Below, one piece after another: positions 7,880 to 24,000 of a stretch of DNA of 24,000 nucleotides. Numbering within the stretch: the first letter of the stretch is position 1; each line of letters begins with the position of its first letter. The stretch is taken from contig NZ_AYPQ01000007.1 in NCBI RefSeq assembly GCF_000633635.1, positions 109,194-133,193 on the forward strand, read 5' to 3'. The position numbers and the translations under genes were made by a program. The stretch comes from Enterococcus crotali. GTDB lineage: Bacteria > Bacillota > Bacilli > Lactobacillales > Enterococcaceae. A model generated the notes under the pieces. The model made no database searches and was not told the origin of the DNA. It worked only from the letters and a program-made list of their open reading frames with translations.

Positions 7880-7908
7880 TTGATTTTTTAATTTAAAAAT
7901 TGTAAACT
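7880..7908 (+). promoter_or_regulatory. Predicted sigma-A promoter of oppA
   Basis: -35 TTGATT (7880-7885), a 17-nt spacer, then -10 TAAACT (7903-7908) with TG immediately upstream. This is the best promoter-like match in the 455-nt region upstream of oppA. Confidence 0.45.
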
Positions 7909-7942
7909 ATACCTCAGTACAATAAATAATTATTAAATTCTG

Positions 7943-7957
7943 ATTTTTCAGAAAATA
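7943..7957 (+). promoter_or_regulatory. CodY-box-like operator
   Basis: ATTTTTCAGAAAATA matches the 15-nt CodY consensus AATTTTCWGAAAATT at 13 of 15 positions. It lies between the predicted -10 and the oppA SD (GGGAGG, 7972-7977). Confidence 0.5.
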
Positions 7958-7985: not shown

Positions 7986-9662
7986 ATGAAGTTAAAGAAG
8001 TCATTTGCTTTTGGATTCATCACTTTATTTAGTTTAACACTAGCAGCATGTGGTAATGGCGGCGGAAAAACAGACGATTCAGGCAGCTCGAAATCAGCTG
8101 ACGGAAAGCCTAGCGGAGAACAAATTTTCCGTGTTAATGAATTACAAGAAATGCCAAGTGCTGATTTATCAGTAGCAACAGATCAAATCAGTTTTATTGC
8201 CTTAAACAATGTGTATGAAGGAATCTATCGTTTGAATTTAGATAATGAAGCTGAACCTGCGGGCGCTGCTGAAAAAGCAGAAGTCAGCGAAGACGGAATT
8301 ACTTATAAAATTAAGTTAAACGAAAAAGCTAAATGGACTGATGGCAAACCAGTAAAAGCAGAAGACTATGTCTATGGATGGCAACGAACGGTTGACCCTG
8401 CGACAGCTTCAGAATATGCTTACTTGTATGAATCTGTAAAAAATGGTGCAGATGTCGCTGCAGGTAAAAAAGATAAAGAAGAATTAGGAATCAAAGCAGT
8501 AGGCGATTATGAATTAGAGATTACTTTAGAAAAGGCTACTCCTTATTTTGATTATCTACTAGCATTCCCATCGTTCTTCCCTCAAAGAAAAGATATTGTG
8601 GAAAAATATGGTAAAGATTATGCTGCAAACAGTGAAAATTCAGTTTATAATGGACCATTCGTATTAGACGGATTTGATGGACCTGGAACAGATACAAAAT
8701 GGTCATACAAGAAAAATAAAGAATATTGGGATGCAGATGCTGTAAAATTGGATGAAGTACAGGTGAATGTTGTAAAAGAAGCACCAACTTCATATAATCT
8801 ATTCCAAGACGGACAAGTAGATGATGTTCAATTAACTGGTGAATTAGCACAACAAGCAGCTAACGATCCACAGCTTGTAATTTTAAAAACAGCATCGACT
8901 CAATATATGGAATTAAATCAAATCGATGACAATTCACCATTTAGAAATGAAAACTTAAGAAAAGCTATCTCTTATTCAATCGATCGTAAATCATTGGTTG
9001 AGCAGATCCTAGGTGACGGTTCTGTAGAACCTAAAGGCTTAGTTCCAGCTGATATGTCTAAATCTCCAGATGGAAAAGAAGACTTTACAGAAGCTGCTGA
9101 GGATAAAATTTCTTATGATAAAGACAAAGCAAAAGAATATTGGGAAAAAGCGAAGAAAGAGTTGGGTATCAAAACATTAGATATTGATATCTTATCTTCT
9201 GATGCTGATTCATCTAAGAAAACAGTAGAATATATCCAAGGTGCGATTCAAGATAGCTTAGAAGGAACAAAAGTAACAGTAAGTCCAGTACCATTTGCTG
9301 TCCGTTTAGACCGTTCTAACAAAGGTGACTTTAAAGCAGTTATCGGCGGCTGGGGAGCTGACTATGTAGATCCAAGTAGCTTCTTAGATCTATTCCAGAC
9401 AGGGGTTCCATATAACCGTGGACACTACAGCAATGCTGACTATGACAAAGCATTAAAAGCTGCTTCAACAACCAATGCCAATGATCCTGAAAAACGTTGG
9501 GATAATTTAGTTGATGCAGAGAAAATAATCATGGGTGACATGGGTGTGATTCCACTTTACCAAAAAGCAGAAGCTCACTTACGTGCTGAAAAAGTTAAAG
9601 ATGTTGCTTTCCATCCAGCAGGCGCACAATACGATTATAAATGGACATACATTTCAGAATAA
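7986..9662 (+). CDS. oppA: Oligopeptide ABC transporter substrate-binding lipoprotein (family 5 SBP)
   Basis: 558 aa with a signal peptide and lipobox LTLAAC (Cys22), followed by a Gly/Ser-rich linker. OppA/DppA-like body, next to oppBCDF. Confidence 0.9.
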   Translation: MKLKKSFAFGFITLFSLTLAACGNGGGKTDDSGSSKSADGKPSGEQIFRVNELQEMPSADLSVATDQISFIALNNVYEGIYRLNLDNEAEPAGAAEKAEVSEDGITYKIKLNEKAKWTDGKPVKAEDYVYGWQRTVDPATASEYAYLYESVKNGADVAAGKKDKEELGIKAVGDYELEITLEKATPYFDYLLAFPSFFPQRKDIVEKYGKDYAANSENSVYNGPFVLDGFDGPGTDTKWSYKKNKEYWDADAVKLDEVQVNVVKEAPTSYNLFQDGQVDDVQLTGELAQQAANDPQLVILKTASTQYMELNQIDDNSPFRNENLRKAISYSIDRKSLVEQILGDGSVEPKGLVPADMSKSPDGKEDFTEAAEDKISYDKDKAKEYWEKAKKELGIKTLDIDILSSDADSSKKTVEYIQGAIQDSLEGTKVTVSPVPFAVRLDRSNKGDFKAVIGGWGADYVDPSSFLDLFQTGVPYNRGHYSNADYDKALKAASTTNANDPEKRWDNLVDAEKIIMGDMGVIPLYQKAEAHLRAEKVKDVAFHPAGAQYDYKWTYISE

Positions 9663-9878: not shown

Positions 9879-10226
9879 TCATAAAAAGTAAAATAATAAA
9901 GAAACAATAGAGACAATCAGTAAAATACCTCCAGTTTCAAGCCAGTAAAGCTGATGTGCTTTACCAATCTCTGAAAATGGGATGAATTCTTTTGGTTCAT
10001 TTTTCTTTCTAAAGCGAATATGCATTTTCATAAAACGTTGGAAATTATCAAAAAATCCTGAGGACATGATCCATAAGGCCAAGCCGATAATTAAAAAGAA
10101 GAGTGAAACAATGAAGAAGGTATCAGATACAGAACGGATAGTCAGTGACTGTTTTATTATTAGGTAAGTAAAAATACCGATGCTTGAGACCGCTGAAGTA
10201 ATCAAGGGCCATTTAAAATTTTTCAT
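9879..10226 (-). CDS. Small membrane protein, DUF3899-like
   Basis: 115 aa with three or four hydrophobic segments and an SSGFFDNFQRF...RFRKK motif, which as I recall is typical of DUF3899 proteins. It lies antisense between oppA and oppB. Confidence 0.5.
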   Translation of the reverse strand: MKNFKWPLITSAVSSIGIFTYLIIKQSLTIRSVSDTFFIVSLFFLIIGLALWIMSSGFFDNFQRFMKMHIRFRKKNEPKEFIPFSEIGKAHQLYWLETGGILLIVSIVSLLFYFL

Positions 10227-10307
10227 ATGCTCATCCTTACTTAATTTTCTATCCTTACTTTATCGAAAAAAACTGATGAAGTCAAAATAATCTCGGAGGT
10301 GTCATTC

Positions 10308-11249
10308 TTGAACAGTTTTGGAAAATATTTTCTTAAACGGGTCTTCTTTATGATCATCACATTGTGGCTGATCGCAACGATTACGTTTTTCTTAATGCAA
10401 TTATTACCAGGTACTCCTTATACCAACCAAGAAAAACTTAGTCCAGAAACAATCGCTATGTTGAACAAGCAATCAGGTTTAGATAAACCGGTGATCGTTC
10501 AATATGGAATTTACTTAAAAAATCTGCTAGTGGGCGATTTTGGAATTTCTTTCCAATTTAAAAACCAACCAGTAGCAAAACTTTTAGCAGGCCGTATCGG
10601 ACCTTCAGTACAATTAGGTGCGCAGGCAATCATCTTTGGTACGCTAGTAGGGATTTTACTAGGGATCATTGCAGCGATGCGCCAAAATACATGGGTGGAT
10701 ACATTAGCAACTTTAATGGCAATCTTAGGGCGTTCGATTCCTAACTTTGTTTTTGCGGTATTACTGCAATATATCTTTGCTATGAAATTAAAAGTATTAC
10801 CAATCGCAATGTGGAATGGGTTTGCTTATACGATTTTACCAACGATCGCGTTAGCAATGAGTCCAATGGCCGATTCCGCCAGGTTTATACGAACCGAGAT
10901 GGTCGAAGTTTTACATAGTGACTATGTAGAGTTGGCGCGTGCCAAAGGCTTGAGTCGCTGGCAAGTGGCCGTAAGACATGGACTTAGAAATAGTTTGATT
11001 CCTTTGATTACATTACTTGGTCCATTAGCTGTTGGTTTGATGACTGGATCTTTAGTTGTTGAAAATATTTTTGCTATCCCAGGTATTGGGGAGCAATTTG
11101 TAAAATCGATCATGACCAATGACTACCCAACAATTATGGCAGTAACTATTCTATATTCTGCTTTATTAGTATTTGTAATCTTGATCGTTGATTTACTTTA
11201 TGGATTGATCGATCCAAGAATTCGTGTTTCAGGAGGTGCCAAAGGTTAA
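10308..11249 (+). CDS. oppB: Oligopeptide ABC transporter permease
   Basis: BPD-type permease with the EAA-like loop (SDYVELARAKGLS). I prefer the TTG at 10308, 8 nt after GGAGG (10295-10299). The ORF-track GTG at 10299 overlaps the SD itself. Confidence 0.85.
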   Translation: MNSFGKYFLKRVFFMIITLWLIATITFFLMQLLPGTPYTNQEKLSPETIAMLNKQSGLDKPVIVQYGIYLKNLLVGDFGISFQFKNQPVAKLLAGRIGPSVQLGAQAIIFGTLVGILLGIIAAMRQNTWVDTLATLMAILGRSIPNFVFAVLLQYIFAMKLKVLPIAMWNGFAYTILPTIALAMSPMADSARFIRTEMVEVLHSDYVELARAKGLSRWQVAVRHGLRNSLIPLITLLGPLAVGLMTGSLVVENIFAIPGIGEQFVKSIMTNDYPTIMAVTILYSALLVFVILIVDLLYGLIDPRIRVSGGAKG

Positions 11250-12301
11250 TGGAAACAGTTGACTTAAACAATGTCCCAGAAAAAATCAAAAAGATACCTG
11301 CAAATGACTTCCAGCCTTTGGATACATCAACAACAAAGGAACGTGAACGAATTGCGACACCGTCATTAAGCTTCTTACAAGATTCTTGGCGTCGTTTGAA
11401 AAAAAATAAAGCAGCTGTGATTTCCTTGATTCTTTTAGGGATCATCATCTTTATTTCAATTATTACTATTTGGGTTTCACCTCATGACCCAACCCAACAA
11501 AATGTAGCTTATATCAATTTACCACCGCGTATTCCGATTTTAGACAGTATCAATGGCTTCAATGGAACAGCCACAGTCGCTGGAAAAGTTGTTGATAAAT
11601 ACGCACAAGCCAATGTTCCTGATAATGTAAACTTCTTCCTAGGAACAGACGGATTAGGCCGTGATGTATTGAGCCGTTTATTCATGGGAACACGTATCTC
11701 ATTATTGATCGCATTTATCGCAGCCTTACTTGATATTACGATCGGTGTAACATACGGTTTGATTTCAGGACTATTAGGCGGACGTGTGGATACAGTGATG
11801 CAACGTATCTTAGAAGTTCTTTCAGGAATTCCTAACCTTGTTGTGATGATCTTGATGCTGACTGTTTTTGATCCAGGTATTTTATCAATCGTGTTAGCGA
11901 TGGTTATTACCAACTGGATTTCGATGGCCAGGATCGTTCGGGCTCAGACCTTGAAATTAAAAGATCAAGAGTTCGTTTTAGCCGCCCAAACATTAGGTGA
12001 ATCTCGTTTGAAGATCGCCGTAAAACATATTTTGCCGAATATCTCAAGTGTGATCATCGTTCAAATGATGTTCAGTATTCCATCGGCAATTTTCTTCGAA
12101 GCGTTTCTAAGTTTCATCGGTTTAGGATTAAGACCGCCGACCGCTTCTCTTGGAACATTATTAAATGAAGGATATAAAACGTTCCGTTTCCTTCCATATT
12201 TGATGTGGATTCCTGCCGTAACTTTGTCAGTCGTAATGATTTGTTTCAACTTGTTAGCTGACGGACTACGTGATGCCTTCGATCCTAAGATGAAAGAGTA
12301 G
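11249..12301 (+). CDS. oppC: Oligopeptide ABC transporter permease
   Basis: 350 aa, OppC/DppC-like, with an N-terminal extension followed by six TM segments. The start overlaps the oppB stop (TAATG, 11247-11251). Confidence 0.9.
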   Translation: METVDLNNVPEKIKKIPANDFQPLDTSTTKERERIATPSLSFLQDSWRRLKKNKAAVISLILLGIIIFISIITIWVSPHDPTQQNVAYINLPPRIPILDSINGFNGTATVAGKVVDKYAQANVPDNVNFFLGTDGLGRDVLSRLFMGTRISLLIAFIAALLDITIGVTYGLISGLLGGRVDTVMQRILEVLSGIPNLVVMILMLTVFDPGILSIVLAMVITNWISMARIVRAQTLKLKDQEFVLAAQTLGESRLKIAVKHILPNISSVIIVQMMFSIPSAIFFEAFLSFIGLGLRPPTASLGTLLNEGYKTFRFLPYLMWIPAVTLSVVMICFNLLADGLRDAFDPKMKE

Positions 12302-12306
12302 AGTGA

Positions 12307-13368
12307 ATGACTATGGAAAAAGTATTAGAAGTAAAAGACTTACAGATTTCTTTTGATACGTTTGCTGGAAAAGTAAATGCTATTCGTGGTGTTAGCTTTG
12401 AGCTGTTCAAAGGGGAAACTCTTGCAATCGTAGGAGAATCTGGTAGTGGTAAATCAGTTACTACTAGAAGTATCATGCGATTATTGAGCAGCAATGCAAA
12501 CATCGATAATGGAGAAATTCTGTTTAAAGGTGAAGATATCGTACACAAAACGGAAAAACAAATGCAAACCATTCGTGGGAAAGAAATTGCAATGATTTTC
12601 CAAGATCCAATGACCTCATTGGACCCAACGATGCCGATCGGCAAACAAGTTGCGGAATCGTTGATCAAACACAATAAAGTTTCTAAAAAAGAAGGCTTAG
12701 ATCAAGCATTAGAATTATTAAAATTAGTAGGGATTCCAAACGCTGAAAAACGTTTGAAAAACTATCCTCACCAATTTTCAGGTGGACAACGTCAACGGAT
12801 CGTTATTGCGATCGCTTTGATTTGTTACCCAGAAGTTCTAATTGCAGATGAGCCGACAACAGCCTTGGATGTTACGATCCAAGCGCAAATTTTAGAGCTA
12901 TTAAAAGATTTACAACAAAAAATCAGCACATCGATTATTTTTATCACCCATGATTTAGGAGTGGTAGCCAATGTGGCTGATCGTGTAGCTGTTATGTATG
13001 GCGGACGTTTAGTGGAAGTGGGAACATCAGAAGAGATTTTCTACAATCCACAACATCCATATACATGGGGATTACTTGGTTCTATGCCAACAATGGAAGG
13101 AACGGAAGATAAGCTATATGCGATTCCAGGTTCACCTCCAGATTTGTTAGATCCGCCAAAAGGCGATGCTTTCTATCCGCGTAATGAGTTTGCAATGAAG
13201 ATCGACGCAGAAGAAGCACCACCGTATTTTGAAGTATCACCAACTCATAAAGCTGCAACGTGGTTATTAGCGCCACAAGCGCCAAAAATCACCCCTCCAG
13301 CTGAAATTGTAAGACGTTGGGCAATTTATGCTGAACGCCATAATACGACTGCAGGAGGCGTTAAATAA
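12307..13368 (+). CDS. oppD: Oligopeptide ABC transporter ATP-binding protein
   Basis: Walker A GESGSGKS, signature FSGGQRQR, Walker B LIADEPTTALD, and an OppD-type C-terminal extension. Confidence 0.9.
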   Translation: MTMEKVLEVKDLQISFDTFAGKVNAIRGVSFELFKGETLAIVGESGSGKSVTTRSIMRLLSSNANIDNGEILFKGEDIVHKTEKQMQTIRGKEIAMIFQDPMTSLDPTMPIGKQVAESLIKHNKVSKKEGLDQALELLKLVGIPNAEKRLKNYPHQFSGGQRQRIVIAIALICYPEVLIADEPTTALDVTIQAQILELLKDLQQKISTSIIFITHDLGVVANVADRVAVMYGGRLVEVGTSEEIFYNPQHPYTWGLLGSMPTMEGTEDKLYAIPGSPPDLLDPPKGDAFYPRNEFAMKIDAEEAPPYFEVSPTHKAATWLLAPQAPKITPPAEIVRRWAIYAERHNTTAGGVK

Positions 13369-14327
13369 TGAGTGAAAAAAGAAAAGTACTTTTAGATGTT
13401 AAAGGACTAAAACAATACTTTAACGTTGGGCGCCCTGACGAAGTTAGAGCAGTTGACGACATCAGTTTTCATATCTACGAAGGTGAAACATTTGGACTAG
13501 TAGGAGAATCTGGTAGTGGTAAATCAACAACTGGACGTAGTGTGATCCGTTTATACGATCCGACTGGTGGAGAAATCATTTTCAATGGTGACGATATCAG
13601 TAAAATTCGTTCAAAATCAGGAATGCAAGCATTCCGTCGTGAAGTACAAATGATCTTCCAAGATCCTTATGCTTCATTGAACCCAAGAATGAAAGTCAAC
13701 GATATCATTGCTGAAGGGATTGACATTAACCATTTAGCGAAAGATGCTGCTGAACGTGAAGCTAAGGTCAACGAATTACTAAAAGTCGTTGGACTTGATC
13801 CGAGCCATGGTACACGTTATCCGCATGAATTTTCAGGTGGACAACGTCAACGGATCGGAATCGCCAGAGCCTTAGCTGTTGATCCTCGTTTCATCATCTG
13901 TGATGAGCCGATTTCAGCGTTGGATGTATCGATTCAAGCGCAAGTAGTTAACTTATTGCAAGACTTACAAAAAGATGCTGGTCTGACTTATTTGTTTATT
14001 GCCCATGATTTATCAATGGTAAAACATATAAGTGACCGTATCGGTGTAATGCATAGCGGTAGATTATTGGAAATGGGTTCAAGTGATGATGTGTATAACT
14101 TTGGTGTGCATCCGTATACTGAAAGTTTACTATCAGCTATCCCATTGCCTGATCCAGATTATGAACGGACACGTAAACGTATCGTTTATAAACCACAACC
14201 TGAAGACAATAAAGAACGTAAACTAAGAGAAATCACTCCTGAACATTATGTTTATTGTTCTGAAGACGAAGTTGAAGGGTACCGTAAAAAAATCGAAGAG
14301 AAAAAAGCCAGAGCGAATCACGCATAG
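13368..14327 (+). CDS. oppF: Oligopeptide ABC transporter ATP-binding protein
   Basis: Walker A GESGSGKST, signature FSGGQRQR, Walker B IICDEPISALD. The start overlaps the oppD stop (TAATG, 13366-13370). Confidence 0.9.
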   Translation: MSEKRKVLLDVKGLKQYFNVGRPDEVRAVDDISFHIYEGETFGLVGESGSGKSTTGRSVIRLYDPTGGEIIFNGDDISKIRSKSGMQAFRREVQMIFQDPYASLNPRMKVNDIIAEGIDINHLAKDAAEREAKVNELLKVVGLDPSHGTRYPHEFSGGQRQRIGIARALAVDPRFIICDEPISALDVSIQAQVVNLLQDLQKDAGLTYLFIAHDLSMVKHISDRIGVMHSGRLLEMGSSDDVYNFGVHPYTESLLSAIPLPDPDYERTRKRIVYKPQPEDNKERKLREITPEHYVYCSEDEVEGYRKKIEEKKARANHA

Positions 14328-14346
14328 TCGTTTTGCAAACTAAATC

Positions 14347-14387
14347 CTAGCTAGGAAAAAGACTATTTTTTCTTAGCTAGAATTTTT
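14347..14387 (+). terminator. Intrinsic terminator of the opp operon
   Basis: A 14-bp stem (CTAGCTAGGAAAAA pairing with TTTTTCTTAGCTAG, one G-U pair) with a 6-nt loop, followed by AATTTTT. Confidence 0.7.
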
Positions 14388-14475
14388 AAAAAATGGGATG
14401 AAAAAAATGAAATGACTAGTAGAACTATTTCTTCTTTGAAAGAGTTCATAACTTACTTGTCAAGGTGGTCAAATA

Positions 14476-15603
14476 ATGAAGGTATTAAAGGCGTATAAAT
14501 ACAGACTTTACCCTACTTCATTGCAAGAGGAGTTCATTAAAAAAACTTTTTCTTGTGTACGGCTTGTGTATAACCTTTTATTACAGGAGAGAATTCAGCT
14601 GTATAAAGAACTGAAAGAAAATCCAGATTTAAAAGTAAAAATGCCAACACCAGCTCAATATAAAAAAGAGTATCCTTGTTTAAAGGAAGTGGATAGTTTA
14701 GCATTGGCAAATGCACAGGTTTACTTGGATCGAGCGTTCAAAAAATTTCATAGAGAAAAAGCAGTTGGTTTTCCTAAGCTAAAGCAAAAGAAAAACGCTG
14801 TTTGCTCCTACACAACGAATAATCAAAATGGTACAATTAAAATCATTGATGAGAAGTATTTAAAAGTGCCTAAGCTAAAATCGTTGATGAAAATGAAGAT
14901 GCATCGTCCAGTAATAGGGAAAATAAAGTCAGCGACAATTTCTTTGACTCCCAGCAATAAGTATTTCGTTTCAATCTTGTGTGAAGAAGAAATTCCGGCA
15001 GTTGAGAAGACGCATTTTGCAATCGGGATCACATTAGGCGCTTCTGAATTTGCTGTATTATCAAATGGCAGACGTTTTGACAATGATAAATATACAAAGG
15101 AATTTGAACGGCGGATCACGAGAGAAGAAAGAAAACTGAGGCGACGTAAAGAAATTGCAAAAATAAAAGGAACAGATCTTTCTCAGCAAAAAAACTACCA
15201 GAAACAAAAAGTGAAAGTTGTAAAAATGCGGGAAAAGTTGATGAATCAACGAATTGATTTTCTAAATAAAATCACGACAGAAATCGTTAGAAAGTATGAC
15301 TTGATTTGTATAGAAGATATTCATCAAGCAGATTTTTATAGAAATAATAAACTACATCGAGGCGTTACGGATGTTTCTTGGGCCTTGTTTGTTTCAAAGT
15401 TAGAATATAAAGCATCGTGGTATAACAAAAGATTGATTAAGGTTTCCGTGTGCCACAAATGTTCTGAACATTCAGATAATACCCGGATAAGTAAACTATT
15501 TTTTCATGAGATAAACGAAAAAAAGGGCAGGCAAGATCCAGAAACAGCGGCCAGTATTCAGGTACTGACACAGGGATTAAAAGAAGCAACTGTCAATGAC
15601 TAA
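14476..15603 (+). CDS. tldR: TnpB-like protein (IS200/IS605 OrfB lineage) with a degenerate RuvC/zinc-finger region; candidate nuclease-dead RNA-guided regulator (TldR-type)
   Basis: 375 aa. The N-terminus (KAYKYRLYPTSLQEEFIKKTFSCVRLVYN) and core are TnpB-like. The RuvC-I motif reads GITLG instead of GIDLG (Thr186, ACA at 15031-15033). RuvC-II Glu is retained (ICIED, Glu280). Only the first CxxC is present (CHKC, residues 326-329). The RuvC-III DRDxNAAxNI motif is degenerate (RQDPETAASIQV). SD GGTGG lies 7 nt before the ATG. No tnpA or IS ends are nearby. Confidence 0.75.
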   Translation: MKVLKAYKYRLYPTSLQEEFIKKTFSCVRLVYNLLLQERIQLYKELKENPDLKVKMPTPAQYKKEYPCLKEVDSLALANAQVYLDRAFKKFHREKAVGFPKLKQKKNAVCSYTTNNQNGTIKIIDEKYLKVPKLKSLMKMKMHRPVIGKIKSATISLTPSNKYFVSILCEEEIPAVEKTHFAIGITLGASEFAVLSNGRRFDNDKYTKEFERRITREERKLRRRKEIAKIKGTDLSQQKNYQKQKVKVVKMREKLMNQRIDFLNKITTEIVRKYDLICIEDIHQADFYRNNKLHRGVTDVSWALFVSKLEYKASWYNKRLIKVSVCHKCSEHSDNTRISKLFFHEINEKKGRQDPETAASIQVLTQGLKEATVND

Positions 15604-15748
15604 GTAAAAAAAACTGTAGGGACTACAGGGTTAGCCTAGGGCATATAAGATAGATATAGCGTTTAGTCGATCATTTGTCTTTTTCTAGGAAATTTCTAGT
15701 TAATAGAAATAGTTCACTAATTATTAGTTGATAAAAAATCAAACTTTG
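15560..15748 (+). ncRNA. Candidate omega-RNA-like guide RNA (scaffold plus short guide); boundaries approximate
   Basis: Stem-loops at 15614-15628, 15685-15710 and 15716-15728 are followed by TAAAAAATCAA (15732-15742), the exact complement of the oppA -35 region (7880-7890). The position is where a TnpB scaffold would be expected to end. There is no direct evidence of transcription, and the 5' end is unknown. Confidence 0.35.
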
Positions 15749-18650: not shown

Positions 18651-18782
18651 AAAAGCTTTTAGGATGATTTCCTTAAGCGTTTAGTAACAAAGCTTGCTGA
18701 ATTTGAGAATGAAATAATTCATGCAATAACTTAGCAATTAAAATAACTCATAGAGACAATAGATATTTAGGAGGAATTAACC

Positions 18783-19141
18783 ATGGCACGTGTTAAAGGT
18801 GGCGTAGTAGCCGTAAACGTCGTAAAAAGATTCTTAAGTTAGCGAAAGGCTATTATGGATCAAAACATACATTATTTAAAACAGCACAAGAACAAGTAAT
18901 GAAATCATACAGTTATGCATACAGAGATCGTCGTCAAAAGAAACGTGATTTCCGTAAATTATGGATTGCACGTATCAACGCAGCAGCTCGTATGAATGGC
19001 TTGAGCTATTCTAAATTAATGCACGGTTTGAAATTGGCAGAGATTGATATCAACCGCAAAATGCTAGCAGAATTAGCTGTTAACGATGCAGCAGCATTTA
19101 CTGCATTAGCTGACCAAGCTAAAACAGCGTTAAATAAATAG
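18783..19141 (+). pseudogene. rplT: 50S ribosomal protein L20, interrupted by a 1-nt frameshift as sequenced (probably intact in vivo)
   Basis: ATG 18783 follows AGGAGG and encodes MARVKGGVV, then the frame breaks near 18807-18810. The remainder ([48 protein letters not shown]...) continues in the frame of ORF 18899-19141. The repaired length is 119 aa. Confidence 0.9.
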
Positions 19142-19169: not shown

Positions 19170-19200
19170 ATCCCTACTCATTTGAGTGGGGATTTTTTTT
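19170..19200 (+). terminator. Intrinsic terminator of rplT
   Basis: Stem ATCCCTACTC pairing with GAGTGGGGAT (one G-U pair), a 4-nt loop, and a T8 run. Confidence 0.8.
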
Positions 19201-19492
19201 GACCCAGATTTTGACCCAGAGATTTACCTTGCTCCATAAAAGCTGCAAAGATGTCAGCTGTTTCCTCTTCATCTTCCTTTTTGTATTTTCTTTTTTTAGG
19301 TTTTGATTGTATTCCATTTTCTTGTATTTCAACTTCTAAGCGTGAGAGCGCAATTTTTGCTTCCTTTATTGTTTTGAAGCCACGACGAGTGGTTTCTTTT
19401 TGTTTACCAGTTAATAGATCTATTCCTAAATATTTTTTTAACATGTATGCAGTAGTACCATTTTTTTTAGTATATTTTTTTATTGAGAGGAA
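19178..19492 (-). pseudogene. Tyrosine-integrase remnant (N-terminal arm-binding domain only)
   Basis: The open frame reads ...IKKYTKKNGTTAYMLKKYLGIDLLTGKQKETTRRGFKTIKEAKIALSRLEVEIQENG..., matching the N-terminus of phage/ICE integrases of Lactobacillales. There is no in-frame start after the stop at 19493-19495 until an internal ATG at 19444. The core-binding and catalytic domains are absent, and the frame runs into the rplT terminator. Confidence 0.65.
19197..19220. repeat. Perfect tandem duplication TTTTGACCCAGA x2 at the island junction
   Basis: 19197-19208 and 19209-19220 are identical. The duplication lies between the rplT terminator and the truncated end of the integrase remnant. Confidence 0.8.
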
Positions 19493-19515
19493 TCATCGTT
19501 TGACTCTAGCTTAAA

Positions 19516-19531
19516 CTGATATCAATATCAG
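19516..19531. promoter_or_regulatory. 16-bp palindrome (operator-like) between divergent island genes
   Basis: CTGATAT-CA-ATATCAG has perfect 7-bp arms. It lies 12 nt upstream of the GTG start at 19544. Confidence 0.35.
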
Positions 19532-19543
19532 AGAGGATTCGCG

Positions 19544-19753
19544 GTGATACAAGCCATTTACTTTTTGATTAATCATGGATTACCTATCCAACCAAAACTT
19601 ATAGGCAAAAAAGAACATTATGTTTGGTCTCCAGAATTGGCTGAGAAGTTAATTGATTTTGTCACACAGCATCAACGAATGGACTTAATCCCATTGATTC
19701 AGAACAAAACAAAAAATCGCTCCATCAAAAAGATGGAACGATCACCAAAATAA
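19544..19753 (+). CDS. Hypothetical small protein (island gene)
   Basis: 69-aa ORF with a GTG start 7 nt after GAGAGG. No family recognised. Confidence 0.35.
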   Translation: MIQAIYFLINHGLPIQPKLIGKKEHYVWSPELAEKLIDFVTQHQRMDLIPLIQNKTKNRSIKKMERSPK

Positions 19754-19794
19754 ACTAAACTAATTATAGCAAATATGAAAGGAAATGATTATAC

Positions 19795-20217
19795 ATGGCA
19801 AAAATGTTGAATATGAGAGACTTTGATTTTACAGCAATTGGCACTATTTTTGAATTAGATGAGGTGACACCAAAGTTTGCGACAGAAGAACGAACAAATG
19901 ATCAAGGAAAAACAATTATGGGACAAGATGGGCAACCAAGAAAATTCAATACGGATGAAATCGTTGGATATAAATACTCAGTGACGATCACAGAAGGCAA
20001 TTACAGAAAGCAATTACAGAAAGCAATTACAGAAAGCAATTACAGAAAGAAAGCGACTCAAGTGACAGTGAATAGTTTAGACAATCCGATTACGAACAAA
20101 GAAATTTTGAAACGAGAGAGTGTGAAATGCAAATTTGTGAATTTGGAGCCTTCTATGATTGGAAATCCGATGTATTTTAAAGCAGATAAAATTCAATTGA
20201 TTGAAATAGGGAAATAA
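19795..20217 (+). CDS. Hypothetical protein, possibly DUF961-like (conjugative-element associated); contains an internal 13-nt tandem repeat
   Basis: 140-aa ORF with SD AAAGGAAA upstream. It loosely resembles Tn916-type DUF961 proteins (VGYKYSV...VTV...KCKFVNLEPSMIG...YFKADKIQLI). A strong terminator follows. Confidence 0.45.
   Translation: MAKMLNMRDFDFTAIGTIFELDEVTPKFATEERTNDQGKTIMGQDGQPRKFNTDEIVGYKYSVTITEGNYRKQLQKAITESNYRKKATQVTVNSLDNPITNKEILKRESVKCKFVNLEPSMIGNPMYFKADKIQLIEIGK
19997..20048 (+). repeat. Tandem repeat GCAATTACAGAAA x4 (13-nt unit) inside a CDS
   Basis: Four perfect copies at 19997-20009, 20010-20022, 20023-20035 and 20036-20048, with a partial match (ACAGAAG) just upstream. 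Confidence 0.9.
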
Positions 20218-20222
20218 AATTT

Positions 20223-20254
20223 AGCAGATGATTGTATGGTCATCTGCTTTTTTT
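20223..20254 (+). terminator. Intrinsic terminator
   Basis: AGCAGATGA (20223-20231) pairs with TCATCTGCT (20240-20248) around an 8-nt loop, followed by a T7 run. Confidence 0.8.
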
Positions 20255-20312
20255 ATTTGATAAAAAATATTATCTTCTTTTACTAGTTTCTAAATATAAA
20301 ACATTAAAAAAA

Positions 20313-20353
20313 TGTCAACTTTGACAGGATTCCGAAAGAATTGTGTCAACTTT
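20313..20353 (+). promoter_or_regulatory. Direct repeats TGTCAACTTT x2 (31-nt pitch), the first forming the palindrome TGTCAA-CT-TTGACA; candidate regulator site/promoter of the rSAM operon
   Basis: Identical 10-mers at 20313-20322 and 20344-20353. TTGACA (20321-20326) lies within the first site. The repeats are 40-80 nt upstream of the rSAM start. Confidence 0.35.
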
Positions 20354-20390
20354 TTTTGATATTCTTATGTTAAATGGAGGAATTTTATTT

Positions 20391-21633
20391 ATGAAAAAAG
20401 AAATAGGCAACCATGTTGAAATTGTATCTAGTAAAGCAAACGGATATGTATTATTGGCTAATACTGTAAATGATCAGTGGATAAGAATATCGAAAGAAAC
20501 ATTTGATATTCTAAAGCAGTTACTCGAAGCAGATTTAGTAGATGATTTAGAATCAAATTTTTTCAATCCTTAGAAGATTTTCAATTTATAAAAAATACAA
20601 TTGAAGAACTTGAAAAAATGAATTTAATTAGTCGTTCAGGCGAGAAGTATGGAGTTGTTAATGAAACGGTATCGATAGAAACAACCCATCGATGTAATTT
20701 ACACTGTGCCCACTGCTGTATGAATGCGTCAAATAATATGAAAGAAGAATCTGATTTGTCTTTAGAGCAAATGAAAGAAATGTTAAATAAGATAATTGAA
20801 TGGAAACCTAAAAGAATTATGCTTAGTGGTGGAGAACCAATGCTTAGAAAAGATTTTTTCTTGATTCTTTCTTATTTACGGAGTAGATATAACGGAACGA
20901 TTATTTTATCCACGAATGGTACGTTTATAAATTCCAAAAATGCTAGTCAACTCGTTAAATGGTAGATCAATTTGAGATAAGTATAGATGGAATAGATGAA
21001 GAAACGTGTTCGGTAGTAAGAGGACGAGGAGTTTTCAAAAAAGTGATTAGAAGTATTGAAATATTGAAAAATTATAACGCTACTGTCATTAATTTATCTA
21101 TGATTTTCTCAGATAAAACCGAACATTTATTAGAACCATTTTACCAGTTAAATGAAAAATTGGAAACAAACCCTATTTGTCGGCTCTTCTCGCCAACTGG
21201 AAGAGGAGAAGAAAATAAGCAATTATTTACAGATAAAACAGAATTTGAAACGTATATTCCCTCTGATTATATGGTTGAGCACTCGGATAAGCCTTTGTCT
21301 ATTTGTTCTTGTACCGCAGGGAAAAAGGAAATATTCATAGATTATCAAGGGAACGTTTATCCCTGCCCTAGTTATATTCGTAGTGAACTCAAAATGGGAA
21401 ATATTTTTAAAATTGACAAATTGACAGATTTAACCGAAAATGGAAGTAGAAAAATATCCTTAACATTAGATAAAATAGATCCTAAGAATTCAGAAAATTG
21501 TTCTGAGTGTGAAGTGAAACTTTTTTGTTGGACATGCCCAGCTTCTATAGATGATTTTAAGTCAAAAGAAGCTTTGGATGATAATTGTCGGCGAATTAAA
21601 CCAGTGTTAATGAAACGGGTTTGGAATTCTTAA
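20391..21633 (+). pseudogene. Radical SAM / SPASM-domain peptide maturase with an N-terminal PqqD-like RRE; two 1-nt frameshifts as sequenced
   Basis: Three ORF pieces (20343-20573, 20618-20965, 20959-21633) join into one protein of about 414 aa if one T is added to the T6 run at 20558-20563 and one base is added at 20957-20961. The CX3CX2C motif (CNLHCAHC) is at 20693-20716. SPASM-type Cys clusters are present (CSCTAGKKEIFIDYQGNVYPCP; CSECEVKLFCWTCP). The N-terminal ~60 aa (VEIVSSKANGYVLLANTVNDQWIRISKETFDILKQLL) resembles a RiPP recognition element. Confidence 0.75.
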
Positions 21634-21648
21634 AAAAGAGGTGATTAT

Positions 21649-22335
21649 TTGTTGGTTAGAAAAATTCTTGTTGTGGAAGATGATATAGACTTAAATGAAG
21701 GAATAAAGTTTGTTCTAGAAAATGATACAACTGAGATTTTTCAAGCGTATTCTCTGACAGAAGCAAAAAAACAAATTAATCAAACATTCGATTTGATACT
21801 ACTTGATATCAACTTACCAGATGGAAATGGTATTGAATTTTGTAAAATAGTCAAACTTCGTTCAAGTAATAGTCCAGTTATTTTTATTAGTGCAAATGAT
21901 ACTGATATAGATGTTATTCGTGGATTAGAATTAGGAGGAGATGACTATATCATAAAACCCTTTAATTTAATGGTGCTCAGAGCAAGAGTGGAAACGGTAA
22001 TTAAAAGATACCATACTCCTATTACTGATGAAAATTATAGTGATCAAAATTATTGTTTTGATTTTGAGACAATGAATTATACTTGCAAAGGACAGGCTGT
22101 ATTTTTAAGTAATGCAGAGCAAAAATTATTAAAAGTATTAGTTAGTAATAGAGGGCAAATAGTGCAAAAAGAAAAGATAATTGAGTTTGTCTGGGGAATA
22201 GATGGAGATTATGTTGAAGAGAACGCTTTGGCGGTTGTAATTAAACGGCTTCGAAAAAAATTGGAAATGGATTCTGGCTCAAAAAATATTAAGAGCATTT
22301 ATGGCATTGGCTATAAATGGGAGAATTTTGAATGA
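21649..22335 (+). CDS. OmpR/PhoB-family response regulator
   Basis: Receiver domain (ILVVEDD, LLDINLPDGNG, IKPF) plus a winged-helix output domain (LLKVLVSNRGQIVQKEKI...GIGYKW). TTG start 6 nt after GAGGTG. Confidence 0.85.
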   Translation: MLVRKILVVEDDIDLNEGIKFVLENDTTEIFQAYSLTEAKKQINQTFDLILLDINLPDGNGIEFCKIVKLRSSNSPVIFISANDTDIDVIRGLELGGDDYIIKPFNLMVLRARVETVIKRYHTPITDENYSDQNYCFDFETMNYTCKGQAVFLSNAEQKLLKVLVSNRGQIVQKEKIIEFVWGIDGDYVEENALAVVIKRLRKKLEMDSGSKNIKSIYGIGYKWENFE

Positions 22336-23314
22336 GTATGAAAAAAAAGTTTCTCATTTTGTTGAATGTTGGCATAGTTTTAACACTAGGAATAAGCATC
22401 TATTATGAAACTACAAAAGCAATTATCTTTTTAGAATTATTTATTTTAGTAGCTATTCAACTAGTATCTTATTATTTTTTTTCAAGAAGTGTATATAATT
22501 TATTAGGAGATTTACATGAGTTACTGTCTACTCCAAATCTTAGCCAATTAGAAATAGAAACAGAAACTGAATTTTCTTCGTTAAAGAACAGATTGATTAA
22601 GTATACAAAAATCGAAGAGTTAAAGCGTGTTGAGAATGAACAATCAAAAAACAGATCGAAAAATTAATTTCAGATATTTCACATCAAACTAAAACCCCGA
22701 TTGCTAATATTATTTTATATAGTGAATTGTTATTAGAAAAAGAGCTAAAAGAAAAAAAATACGTTCAAACTATTACTAATCAAGCTGAGAAATTGCAATG
22801 GCTGATACAGAATTTACTACATCTTTCAAGATTAGAAAATGGGATTATACAATGTAGAAAAGAAGTTTACATGATTAACGATATAATTGTGCCGTGTTTA
22901 GAGCAATATAGAGTAGCATCTGATAATAAAAATTTAGATTTAATCTATGATCAGTTAAAAAATACATCTACATCAATATTTGCAGATCTCAAATGGACTC
23001 AAGAAGCTTTATCAAATATCATTGAAAACAGTGTGAAATACACTGTCGAAGGAAGTGTTCTAGTAGAAGTAGAAGTACAAGATTTATTTGTTTGTATTAT
23101 CGTTTCAGATACTGGGATTGGTATTGATGAAATAGATATGGCACACATTTTTCAAAGGTTTTACCGAAGTCAAAAAGTAAAACACATTCAAGGTGTTGGT
23201 ATAGGTTTGAGTTTAGCCAGAGAAATTATTGAAAAGCAAGAAGGGTATATGATAATTGAGTCTAAAATTGATAACGGAACAAAGGTTAAATTATTTTTAC
23301 CAAAGGAGGAATAA
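22332..23314 (+). pseudogene. Intramembrane-sensing histidine kinase (BceS-like architecture), 1-nt frameshift as sequenced
   Basis: ORFs 22332-22667 and 22727-23314 join if the A6 run at 22646-22651 is read as A7, giving ...NEQSKKQIEKLISDISHQTKTPIANI (H-box). N, G1 and G2 boxes follow (IENSVKYT, DTGIGI, GVGIGLSLA). The N-terminus has two TM helices separated by about 4 residues. The start overlaps the response-regulator stop (ATGA). Confidence 0.8.
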
Positions 23315-23425
23315 TGAGTTCGATTTTTGGGACTTATTATTCCTCTTTATGTCAATTTTGATAGAATTCTAACATAAGCTCGAAAGAATTATTTAATATA
23401 ATTGTTTTAGATAGGAGTGGGAAAT

Positions 23426-24000
23426 ATGAACTCGGTAAAAGTAGTAGATGTATTTAAAAAGTATGATAATGGAATTTTGAAGGTAAATGCTTTGAGAAAC
23501 ATTAATTTAACTATTCAATCTAGTGAATTTGTATCAATAGTAGGCACTTCAGGTAGTGGAAAATCAACTCTTTTAAATTTAATTGGAGGATTAGATTATC
23601 CTTCAAGTGGAGATGTTTTTGTCGATGATGTAAATTTTAAAGATATGAATGAAGAAGAGTTAACTATTTTTAGAAGAAGAAATATCGGTTTTATTTTTCA
23701 AGATTTCAATTTATTACCGTTGTTGAATGTTTATGAAAATATTGTATTACCTATTCAACTGGATGGAAAAAAAATCGATTGCGAATTTATTGATCAAATT
23801 ACTAGACAAATTGGCATACAGGATAAACTTGAATTCTATCCGAGTCAATTATCTGGAGGACAGCAACAAAGAGTAGCGATAGCACGCGCAATTGCTACGA
23901 AACCAGCCATTATTTTAGCAGATGAACCAACAGGGAACTTAGACTCAAAAACAAGTCAAGATGTTCTAGGCCTATTAAAAATGACTGGAAAAAAATATAA
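23426..24000 (+). CDS. ABC transporter ATP-binding protein, MacB/FtsE/BceA-like (3' end outside the window)
   Basis: This gene is not in the ORF track because no stop lies in the window. ATG 23426 follows AGGAGTGG. Walker [11 protein letters not shown]-loop FQDFNLLP, signature [14 protein letters not shown], Walker [12 protein letters not shown]. Confidence 0.85.

Follow-up and report, generated by a model that had tools for sequence, protein, structure and literature searches.

TldRs are TnpB-like nuclease-dead repressors, and a clade of them that is associated with oppF and "mainly present in Enterococci" was described by Wiegand et al. (bioRxiv 10.1101/2023.11.30.569447). In that work RNA immunoprecipitation sequencing (RIP-seq) revealed a 100-nt scaffold with a 9–11-nt guide and chromatin immunoprecipitation sequencing (ChIP-seq) revealed binding; plasmid-interference assays gave no cleavage, and reporter assays gave repression. 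For the oppF-associated clade, guides of 9–11 nt with a 6-nt seed, extra candidate targets and a high mismatch tolerance were reported. Its members are encoded just 3' of oppF in ABC transporter loci of 5–6 genes, and their guides match a site next to TTTAA or TTTAT ahead of the linked oppA. Xiao et al. (10.64898/2026.09.22.753285) solved structures of the Enterococcus faecalis protein Efa1TldR by cryo-electron microscopy (cryo-EM) and found that oppA_T of E. faecalis V583 was repressed about 40-fold upon overexpression of TldR and its guide RNA (gRNA). Here we analysed a stretch of 24,000 nt from Enterococcus crotali (contig NZ_AYPQ01000007.1, positions 109,194 to 133,193; "the window"), in which a gene for a 375-aa protein lies 3' of oppF. 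We consider it very probable that this gene, in the following called tldR, is the E. crotali ortholog of the published oppF-associated TldRs and works by the mechanism proposed below. The system as such is already known (found in 2023–2024, dissected in E. faecalis in 2026), and E. crotali adds an uncharacterised ortholog. An initial annotation of the window had pointed to a TldR group associated with oppF in Enterococcus, which the two publications bear out. It had overlooked the gRNA and the oppA target, and the exaptation it proposed has already been shown experimentally in E. faecalis. Leads that are absent from both TldR papers are the equation of the gRNA with the Rfam family Ref70, a CodY-like box at the target, a palindrome in the 3' part of tldR and mismatches at guide positions 9–10.

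Compared with Efa1TldR (isolate WE0851) and its V583 homolog, the locus has the same layout of oppA, an antisense DUF3899 gene, oppBCDF, tldR and gRNA. Also alike are the transposon-adjacent motif (TAM) TTTAA, the 9-nt target TAATTATTT, the position of the target downstream of the likely oppA promoter and transcription start site (TSS), the short guide and the eroded C-terminal zinc finger/RuvC region. In contrast to the Efa1TldR locus, E. crotali has two HAD hydrolase genes 3' of the gRNA, carries Thr186 where Efa1TldR has Cys185 (D185C), and has indels that shift the residue numbering by +1 and then by +4. The oppF-associated TldRs of E. faecium and E. cecorum (EceTldR) belong to the same clade and target the region upstream of oppA as well, but with TAM and target either overlapping the promoter or placed on the opposite strand; in E. 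crotali both are found on the minus strand of the transcribed leader. More distant are the fliC_P-associated TldRs of Enterobacteriaceae prophages. In these, TnpB was independently domesticated as an RNA-guided repressor that uses one fixed guide, but they are phage-borne, stem from a different TnpB lineage and direct a 16-nt guide to the host fliC promoter.

For comparison within the genus we used 12 orthologous loci, from E. moraviensis, E. ureilyticus, E. ureasiticus, E. caccae, E. plantarum, E. quebecensis, E. termitis, E. rivorum, Ca. E. ikei and three further strains; together with E. crotali they make up the 13 species counted below. The synteny survey proposed in the initial annotation gave a uniform result: the order oppA-DUF3899-oppBCDF-tldR-gRNA-HAD genes-infC was common to the 12 other Enterococcus species, with one of the two HAD genes in E. 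rivorum. The oppBCDF genes were 89–100% identical in the orthologous loci. For tldR the pairwise ratio of nonsynonymous to synonymous substitution rates (dN/dS) was 0.07, with 0.054 for residues 1–325 and 0.19 for the eroded tail of about 50 C-terminal residues; oppA and a neighbouring HAD gene gave 0.096 and 0.097, respectively. A ratio of 0.07 at a fixed chromosomal site indicates that selection maintains tldR and that the gene is not a mobile or decaying one.

The tldR open reading frame (ORF) has an AGGTGG Shine-Dalgarno sequence 7 nt 5' of its ATG. Its product is identical to WP_025873239.1 of E. crotali, which NCBI labels "RNA-guided endonuclease TnpB family protein"; orthologs are labelled "transposase". 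The TnpB descent asserted in the initial annotation was borne out by Pfam matches to HTH_OrfB_IS605 (9e-19) and OrfB_IS605 (1e-13) and by a phmmer search against PDB sequences, in which residues 5–328 aligned to ISDra2 TnpB (E 2e-49). The NCBIfam model guided_TnpB scored 209 bits with a match that stops at residue 324, and the curated IS200_TnpB model scored 330 bits, below its cutoff of 425. An AlphaFold2 model of the protein (mean predicted local distance difference test score, pLDDT, 82.6) had the ISDra2 TnpB ternary complex 8h1j as best structural match (E 2e-22, template modelling score 0.67–0.69). Active TnpBs (ISDra2 TnpB, PDB 8bf8, 8h1j and 8exa; E. cecorum P0035 and others) thus resemble the protein in fold, in an HTH, WED, REC and RuvC core that is alignable to residue ~328, and in a right-end-derived RNA 3' of the gene. 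They are unlike it in their D/E/D triad, intact zinc ribbon, tnpA and transposon ends, multiple copies and 16-nt guide.

The nuclease centre of the protein is eroded. At RuvC-I, T186 (GITLG, codon ACA at 15031–15033) stands in the column of ISDra2 D191, just as the initial annotation had stated, and Thr replaces the Asp in all orthologs aligned. Since D185C of Efa1TldR maps to T186, the substitute residue at RuvC-I differs between lineages. The RuvC-II Glu is kept (E280, corresponding to ISDra2 E278). The C-terminus was aligned via active E. cecorum TnpBs as a bridge, which are 53–55% identical and have GIDLG, CSECG...CPIC and HDRDINAS intact. By this route D359-R360-D361 of ISDra2 lead through the D-R-D of the E. 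cecorum TnpBs to D354-P355-E356, and E356 comes to lie in the column of D361, the second D of DRD. The RuvC-III erosion that had been claimed earlier thus holds for the motif, which reads QDPETAAS and has lost the Asn of NAA, but not for the carboxylate, which persists as E356. The catalytic triad is T186/E280/E356 as opposed to D/E/D, and the T/E/E-type pattern was also found in five oppF-linked orthologs aligned with the protein.

Of the zinc ribbon CHKC (326–329) is the sole remaining CxxC, in agreement with the initial annotation; the second CxxC of active relatives has become I...K. In addition, seven residues that are conserved in relatives (TWFPSSQ) are deleted ahead of the first CxxC. 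The Cas12f1-like TNB zinc-ribbon domain of Pfam scored 18.9 bits, below its cutoff of 26.3 bits. Confidence of the AlphaFold2 model dips at residues 291–300 and 331–340, with a pLDDT of 54 for the latter. No canonical C-terminus was found in another frame between 15400 and 15700, and the ORF is unaffected by the frameshifts of the window, as its product equals WP_025873239.1 and aligns colinearly with 12 orthologs (370–374 aa). This upholds the earlier statement that the altered C-terminus is no frameshift artefact. Given the T/E/E triad and the collapse of the zinc ribbon, the endonuclease label is, judged by the sequence, functionally misleading.

While the nuclease centre is eroded, the nucleic acid contacts are preserved. 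All 11 published TAM and heteroduplex contact residues of Efa1TldR are present in the E. crotali protein: L4, S74, L75, N79, Q81 and V82 with the same numbering, N115, Q117 and L168 in place of N114, Q116 and L167 (offset +1), and Y311 and W315 in place of Y307 and W311 (offset +4). Most of them are invariant in a 36-sequence alignment. This comparison covered the residues that are named in the published text, the Efa1TldR cryo-EM structure being absent from the PDB copies searched.

The elements of the proposed system are as follows.

14476–15603, plus strand: tldR, TnpB homolog of 375 aa, predicted to be nuclease-dead
15608–15717, plus strand: gRNA scaffold (Rfam Ref70 match, conservation, predicted stems)
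15718–15729, plus strand: guide UAAUUAUUAGUU (oppA target match, conservation)
7933–7937, minus strand: TAM 5'-TTTAA-3', the same as published for Efa1TldR and invariant in 13 species
7920–7932, minus strand: gRNA target TAATTATTTATTG, of which the first 9 nt (7932–7924) equal the published string TAATTATTT
7880–7908, plus strand: likely oppA promoter with −35 TTGATT (7880–7885), 17-nt spacer and −10 TAAACT (7903–7908)
7986–9662, plus strand: oppA, substrate-binding protein and presumed regulated gene (Pfam SBP_bac_5, 1e-76; identical to WP_025873235.1 of E. crotali)

Directly 3' of the tldR stop codon, the 122 nt from 15608 to 15729 match the full model (1–122) of the Rfam family RF02841, Ref70 ("Enterococcus sRNA 70"), scoring 135 bits (E 1.4e-27; gathering score 115). 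Rfam describes Ref70 as a small RNA (sRNA) only. The gRNA segment has a mean column identity of 88% in the 13 species, with flanking genes near synonymous saturation (dS ~0.7–1.8, typically about 1.4). In the consensus fold three scaffold stems are predicted, three pairs of which show compensatory changes; there was little other variation. The scaffold ends with ...AUAGUUCAC and the next 12 nt form the guide, beyond which conservation drops. A hairpin is predicted across the guide (ACUAA/UUAGU), in keeping with the stem-loop that the guide forms in the published binary complex of Efa1TldR. From position and sequence we infer that Ref70 is the gRNA of TldR, comprising scaffold and guide. An orphan sRNA family would hereby gain a protein partner and a DNA target. 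Neither TldR paper mentions Rfam or Ref70, and a search of Enterococcus papers, including a 2015 5'-end mapping paper, did not reveal where Ref70 originated.

Xiao et al. used 5'-TTTAA-3' followed by 5'-TAATTATTT-3' as the string of their genome search. The window contains this 14-mer a single time, at 7937–7924 of the minus strand and 49 nt 5' of the oppA ATG. By chance it would be expected 0.0055 times per window and 2e-4 times in the 150 nt upstream of oppA. In simulations of 150-nt leader-like sequence a TAM followed by an 8-nt seed was obtained with a probability of ~6e-4, and within the window a TAM with a 6-nt seed was found at oppA only. The target site recurs in all 12 orthologous loci, between −46 and −51 relative to the start of oppA. 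Guide and target are identical at positions 1–8 and 11–13 (position 13 being the G at 15730) and differ at positions 9–10, where A and G of the guide (15726–15727) are opposed to T and A of the target (7924–7923); this mismatch is found in most species. The effective natural guide–target pairing seems to be 7–9 nt. E. rivorum, the sole locus with a differing target, has an A at position 9 by which the match grows to 9 nt, and in E. plantarum the guide differs also at position 8. Apart from these variants, the 13-species data provide an invariant guide, target and promoter block, conserved 9–10 mismatches and Thr, not Cys, at RuvC-I, and could aid experiments on the specificity of 8–9-nt guides and on the induction of the system.

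A second candidate target at 20252–20268 (TTTAT followed by a 12-nt match to 15728–15739) was judged a chance match, although only 1 of 300 Markov simulations equalled it. Its register does not fit the junction of scaffold and guide, and it is part of the T-tail that follows a terminator hairpin, within a strain-specific island that is missing from all orthologous loci; moreover, the matching gRNA-distal segment is not conserved.

The position of the target relative to transcription follows from the promoter placement. Both hexamers of TTGATT-N17-TAAACT were invariant in the leader alignment of the 13 species; a simple consensus promoter scan did not call this promoter. The TSS of oppA would accordingly be located at ~7915, which places the target at about +10 to +23. 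TACAAT (7918–7923) was rejected as the −10 element of oppA, as its position 2 varies in five species.

The locus carries every sequence-level feature that defines the oppF-associated TldR clade: TnpB homology, eroded motifs, gRNA, TAM with target, synteny and purifying selection are all found in E. crotali. Loss of cleavage, RNA-guided DNA binding and oppA repression are carried over from the experiments in E. faecalis, which suggests the following mechanism. TldR would keep the RNA- and DNA-binding architecture of TnpB but would be unable to cut DNA, because of the T/E/E triad, the collapsed zinc ribbon and the low predicted confidence of the lid region. It would be made at a low level and bind a gRNA (Ref70) of ~110–120 nt from the DNA directly 3' of its stop codon, which would represent the former right end of the transposon. 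The complex would recognise the TAM TTTAA, and at least the first 8 guide nucleotides would pair with the oppA coding strand, 49–62 nt 5' of the ATG. RNA polymerase would be blocked sterically, such that oppA alone is lowered and oppBCDF remains available to other OppA paralogs. The earlier proposal of an exaptation for regulating peptide uptake is supported as an interpretation, but the predicted target is oppA alone and not the whole opp operon. In this way a transposon nuclease would have turned into a single-guide repressor akin to CRISPR interference by which the choice of peptide-binding protein for the Opp transporter is tuned. Such systems can be recognised from raw sequence by a first-stage reader.

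Several points weigh against this mechanism. The guide–target pairing comprises just 8 contiguous nt. The TAM is proximal to the ATG, such that the TAM-distal end of the heteroduplex and R-loop faces the promoter and is met first by RNA polymerase. In reporter assays with a heterologous 5' untranslated region this TAM-distal-first orientation repressed poorly, and the opposite orientation alone was efficient (10.1101/2023.11.30.569447); at +10 to +23, the bound complex may nevertheless get in the way of the polymerase during initiation. Invariance extends over a whole block of ~80 nt that comprises the target, the promoter and a CodY-like palindrome, so that conservation of the target is not specific evidence of TldR binding. 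In V583 deletion of tldR and gRNA was without effect in the laboratory, and repression required overexpression (10.64898/2026.09.22.753285). Finally, the Glu at the RuvC-III column may leave room for residual catalysis.

The short pairing with its conserved mismatches at positions 9–10 and the invariant leader block would also be expected if TldR is functional but acts in nature mainly on targets other than oppA, the leader being conserved for the promoter or a CodY-type operator and the 8-nt seed guiding the complex elsewhere in the genome. The extra candidate targets and the mismatch tolerance reported for the clade point in the same direction. However, the strongest repression in V583 was that of oppA_T, and a TAM-adjacent match was lacking in all other differentially expressed genes (10.64898/2026.09.22.753285). 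The restriction of TAM plus 6-nt seed to oppA within the window and the linkage of tldR to opp across the genus also speak against a different main target, which we thus regard as unlikely.

Still less likely is that the protein is an inert relic and that Ref70 is a stand-alone base-pairing sRNA or the mere 3' end of a transcript, without RNA-guided DNA binding. Ref70 is indeed catalogued as a stand-alone Enterococcus sRNA, the V583 deletion had no laboratory phenotype, and the 50 C-terminal residues evolve faster than the rest. Against this, the ORF is intact in 13 species with its low dN/dS at near-saturated dS, and the TAM-contacting and heteroduplex-stacking residues are conserved. The RNA is placed like the right-end RNA of TnpB, a TAM-flanked seed match is present at the oppA leader in every species, and the E. 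faecalis ortholog binds its gRNA according to both RIP-seq and cryo-EM. An active IS200/IS605-type TnpB, i.e. an RNA-guided nuclease maintaining a transposon that happens to adjoin oppF, would account for the strong TnpB homology and fold, the NCBI annotation of the exact protein and the carboxylates at RuvC-II and RuvC-III, but is extremely improbable given the RuvC-I Thr in all orthologs, the lost second CxxC and 7-aa deletion, the TNB and IS200_TnpB scores below cutoff, the lack of tnpA, ends or a second copy in the window, the same chromosomal position in 13 species and the absence of cleavage by the tested members of the oppF-associated clade.

Returning to TldR as a repressor of oppA, its natural inducing signal was stated as unknown by Xiao et al. 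In the oppA leader a palindrome that resembles a CodY box (ATTTTTCAGAAAATA, 7943–7957, two mismatches to AATTTTCWGAAAATT) is located within a perfect inverted repeat TTCTGAttttTCAGAA, 6 nt from the TAM. It is identical in 12 of the 13 species and one base off in E. rivorum. The number of CodY-like boxes is not significant, with 0.84 expected per window. Within tldR, the codons AAA TGT TCT GAA CAT TCA GAT AAT (15455–15480) are near-invariant in 12 of 13 species including third positions, with varying codons on either side; the conserved block is absent in E. rivorum. It contains the palindrome AATGTTCTGAACATT (15458–15472) and a possible −10 element GATAAT, about 130–150 nt upstream of the gRNA, and could serve as a gRNA promoter or operator. 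A speculative and rather doubtful extension of the mechanism is that the TldR roadblock forms one half of a two-input oppA switch that also senses nutrition, with CodY or a similar protein acting at both palindromes. If this were true, a CodY-type regulator would control oppA directly, gate the production of the gRNA and supply the natural signal of TldR. No statement on CodY control of the opp locus was found in the literature, and CodY is not mentioned by Xiao et al.

The remaining features of the opp–tldR locus are listed below.

9879–10226, minus strand: DUF3899 gene, antisense and interrupting the operon (Pfam DUF3899, 1e-7; kept in 12 loci)
10299–11249, plus strand: oppB (ORF; Pfam BPD_transp_1 and ABC_tran/oligo_HPY among oppBCDF)
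11249–12301, plus strand: oppC (ORF; Pfam on oppBCDF)
12307–13368, plus strand: oppD (ORF; Pfam on oppBCDF)
13368–14327, plus strand: oppF (ORF; Pfam on oppBCDF)
14347–14380, plus strand: terminator-like hairpin of oppF (15-bp stem, then a T-rich tail; inverted-repeat search)

The distance between the oppF terminator hairpin and tldR is 96 nt, close to the ~90 nt given in the initial annotation, which had also recognised that the gene has its own Shine-Dalgarno sequence. On the other side, the gRNA is followed by the two HAD hydrolase genes and then by infC. Within the 24-kb window we found no Y1 transposase (tnpA), no second tnpB-like sequence and no second gRNA copy. The inverted-repeat search of the window returned the oppF terminator hairpin and weak AT-rich pairs only; these were rejected as ends of an insertion sequence (IS), and no terminal hairpin pair of IS type was detected. 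The absence of tnpA and of such hairpins noted earlier is thus confirmed for this stretch. A match to MIR5267 at 14336–14396 was below threshold and was rejected as a chance match on the terminator hairpin.

Upstream of tldR no conserved promoter was found in the species compared, the Shine-Dalgarno sequence being the only conserved element there. The gene is therefore probably expressed from transcripts that run past the oppF terminator. Low read-through expression of this kind has been reported for V583 and would agree both with the lack of a conserved promoter and with the repeats between oppF and tldR described below. The spacer between oppF and tldR ranges from ~150 to 900 nt depending on the species. 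In E. ureasiticus it consists of a 122-bp tandem repeat (6.1 copies, 92% identity), and related repeat units adjoin the Shine-Dalgarno sequence of tldR in most species. A spacer with the terminator hairpin only was found in four species: E. crotali, E. ureilyticus, sp. 5H and Ca. E. ikei.

Elsewhere in the window apparent single-base frameshifts were seen in rplT (18780–18900, where MARVKGG... goes on in another frame), in a radical SAM/SPASM gene that is split into 20618–20965 and 20959–21633, and in a histidine kinase gene (at 22660–22730) that is split into 22332–22667 and 22727–23314. As rplT is essential, its frameshift points to errors in the sequence more than to biology. The region after rplT (19180–24000) is mostly strain-specific; a stretch of ~75–77% identity (19770–20240) recurs in two orthologous loci only. 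It contains a fragment of an integrase Arm-DNA-binding domain (19181–19444, minus strand), a 140-aa ORF, the radical SAM/SPASM enzyme and a two-component system, and may be a small island for a modified-peptide system.

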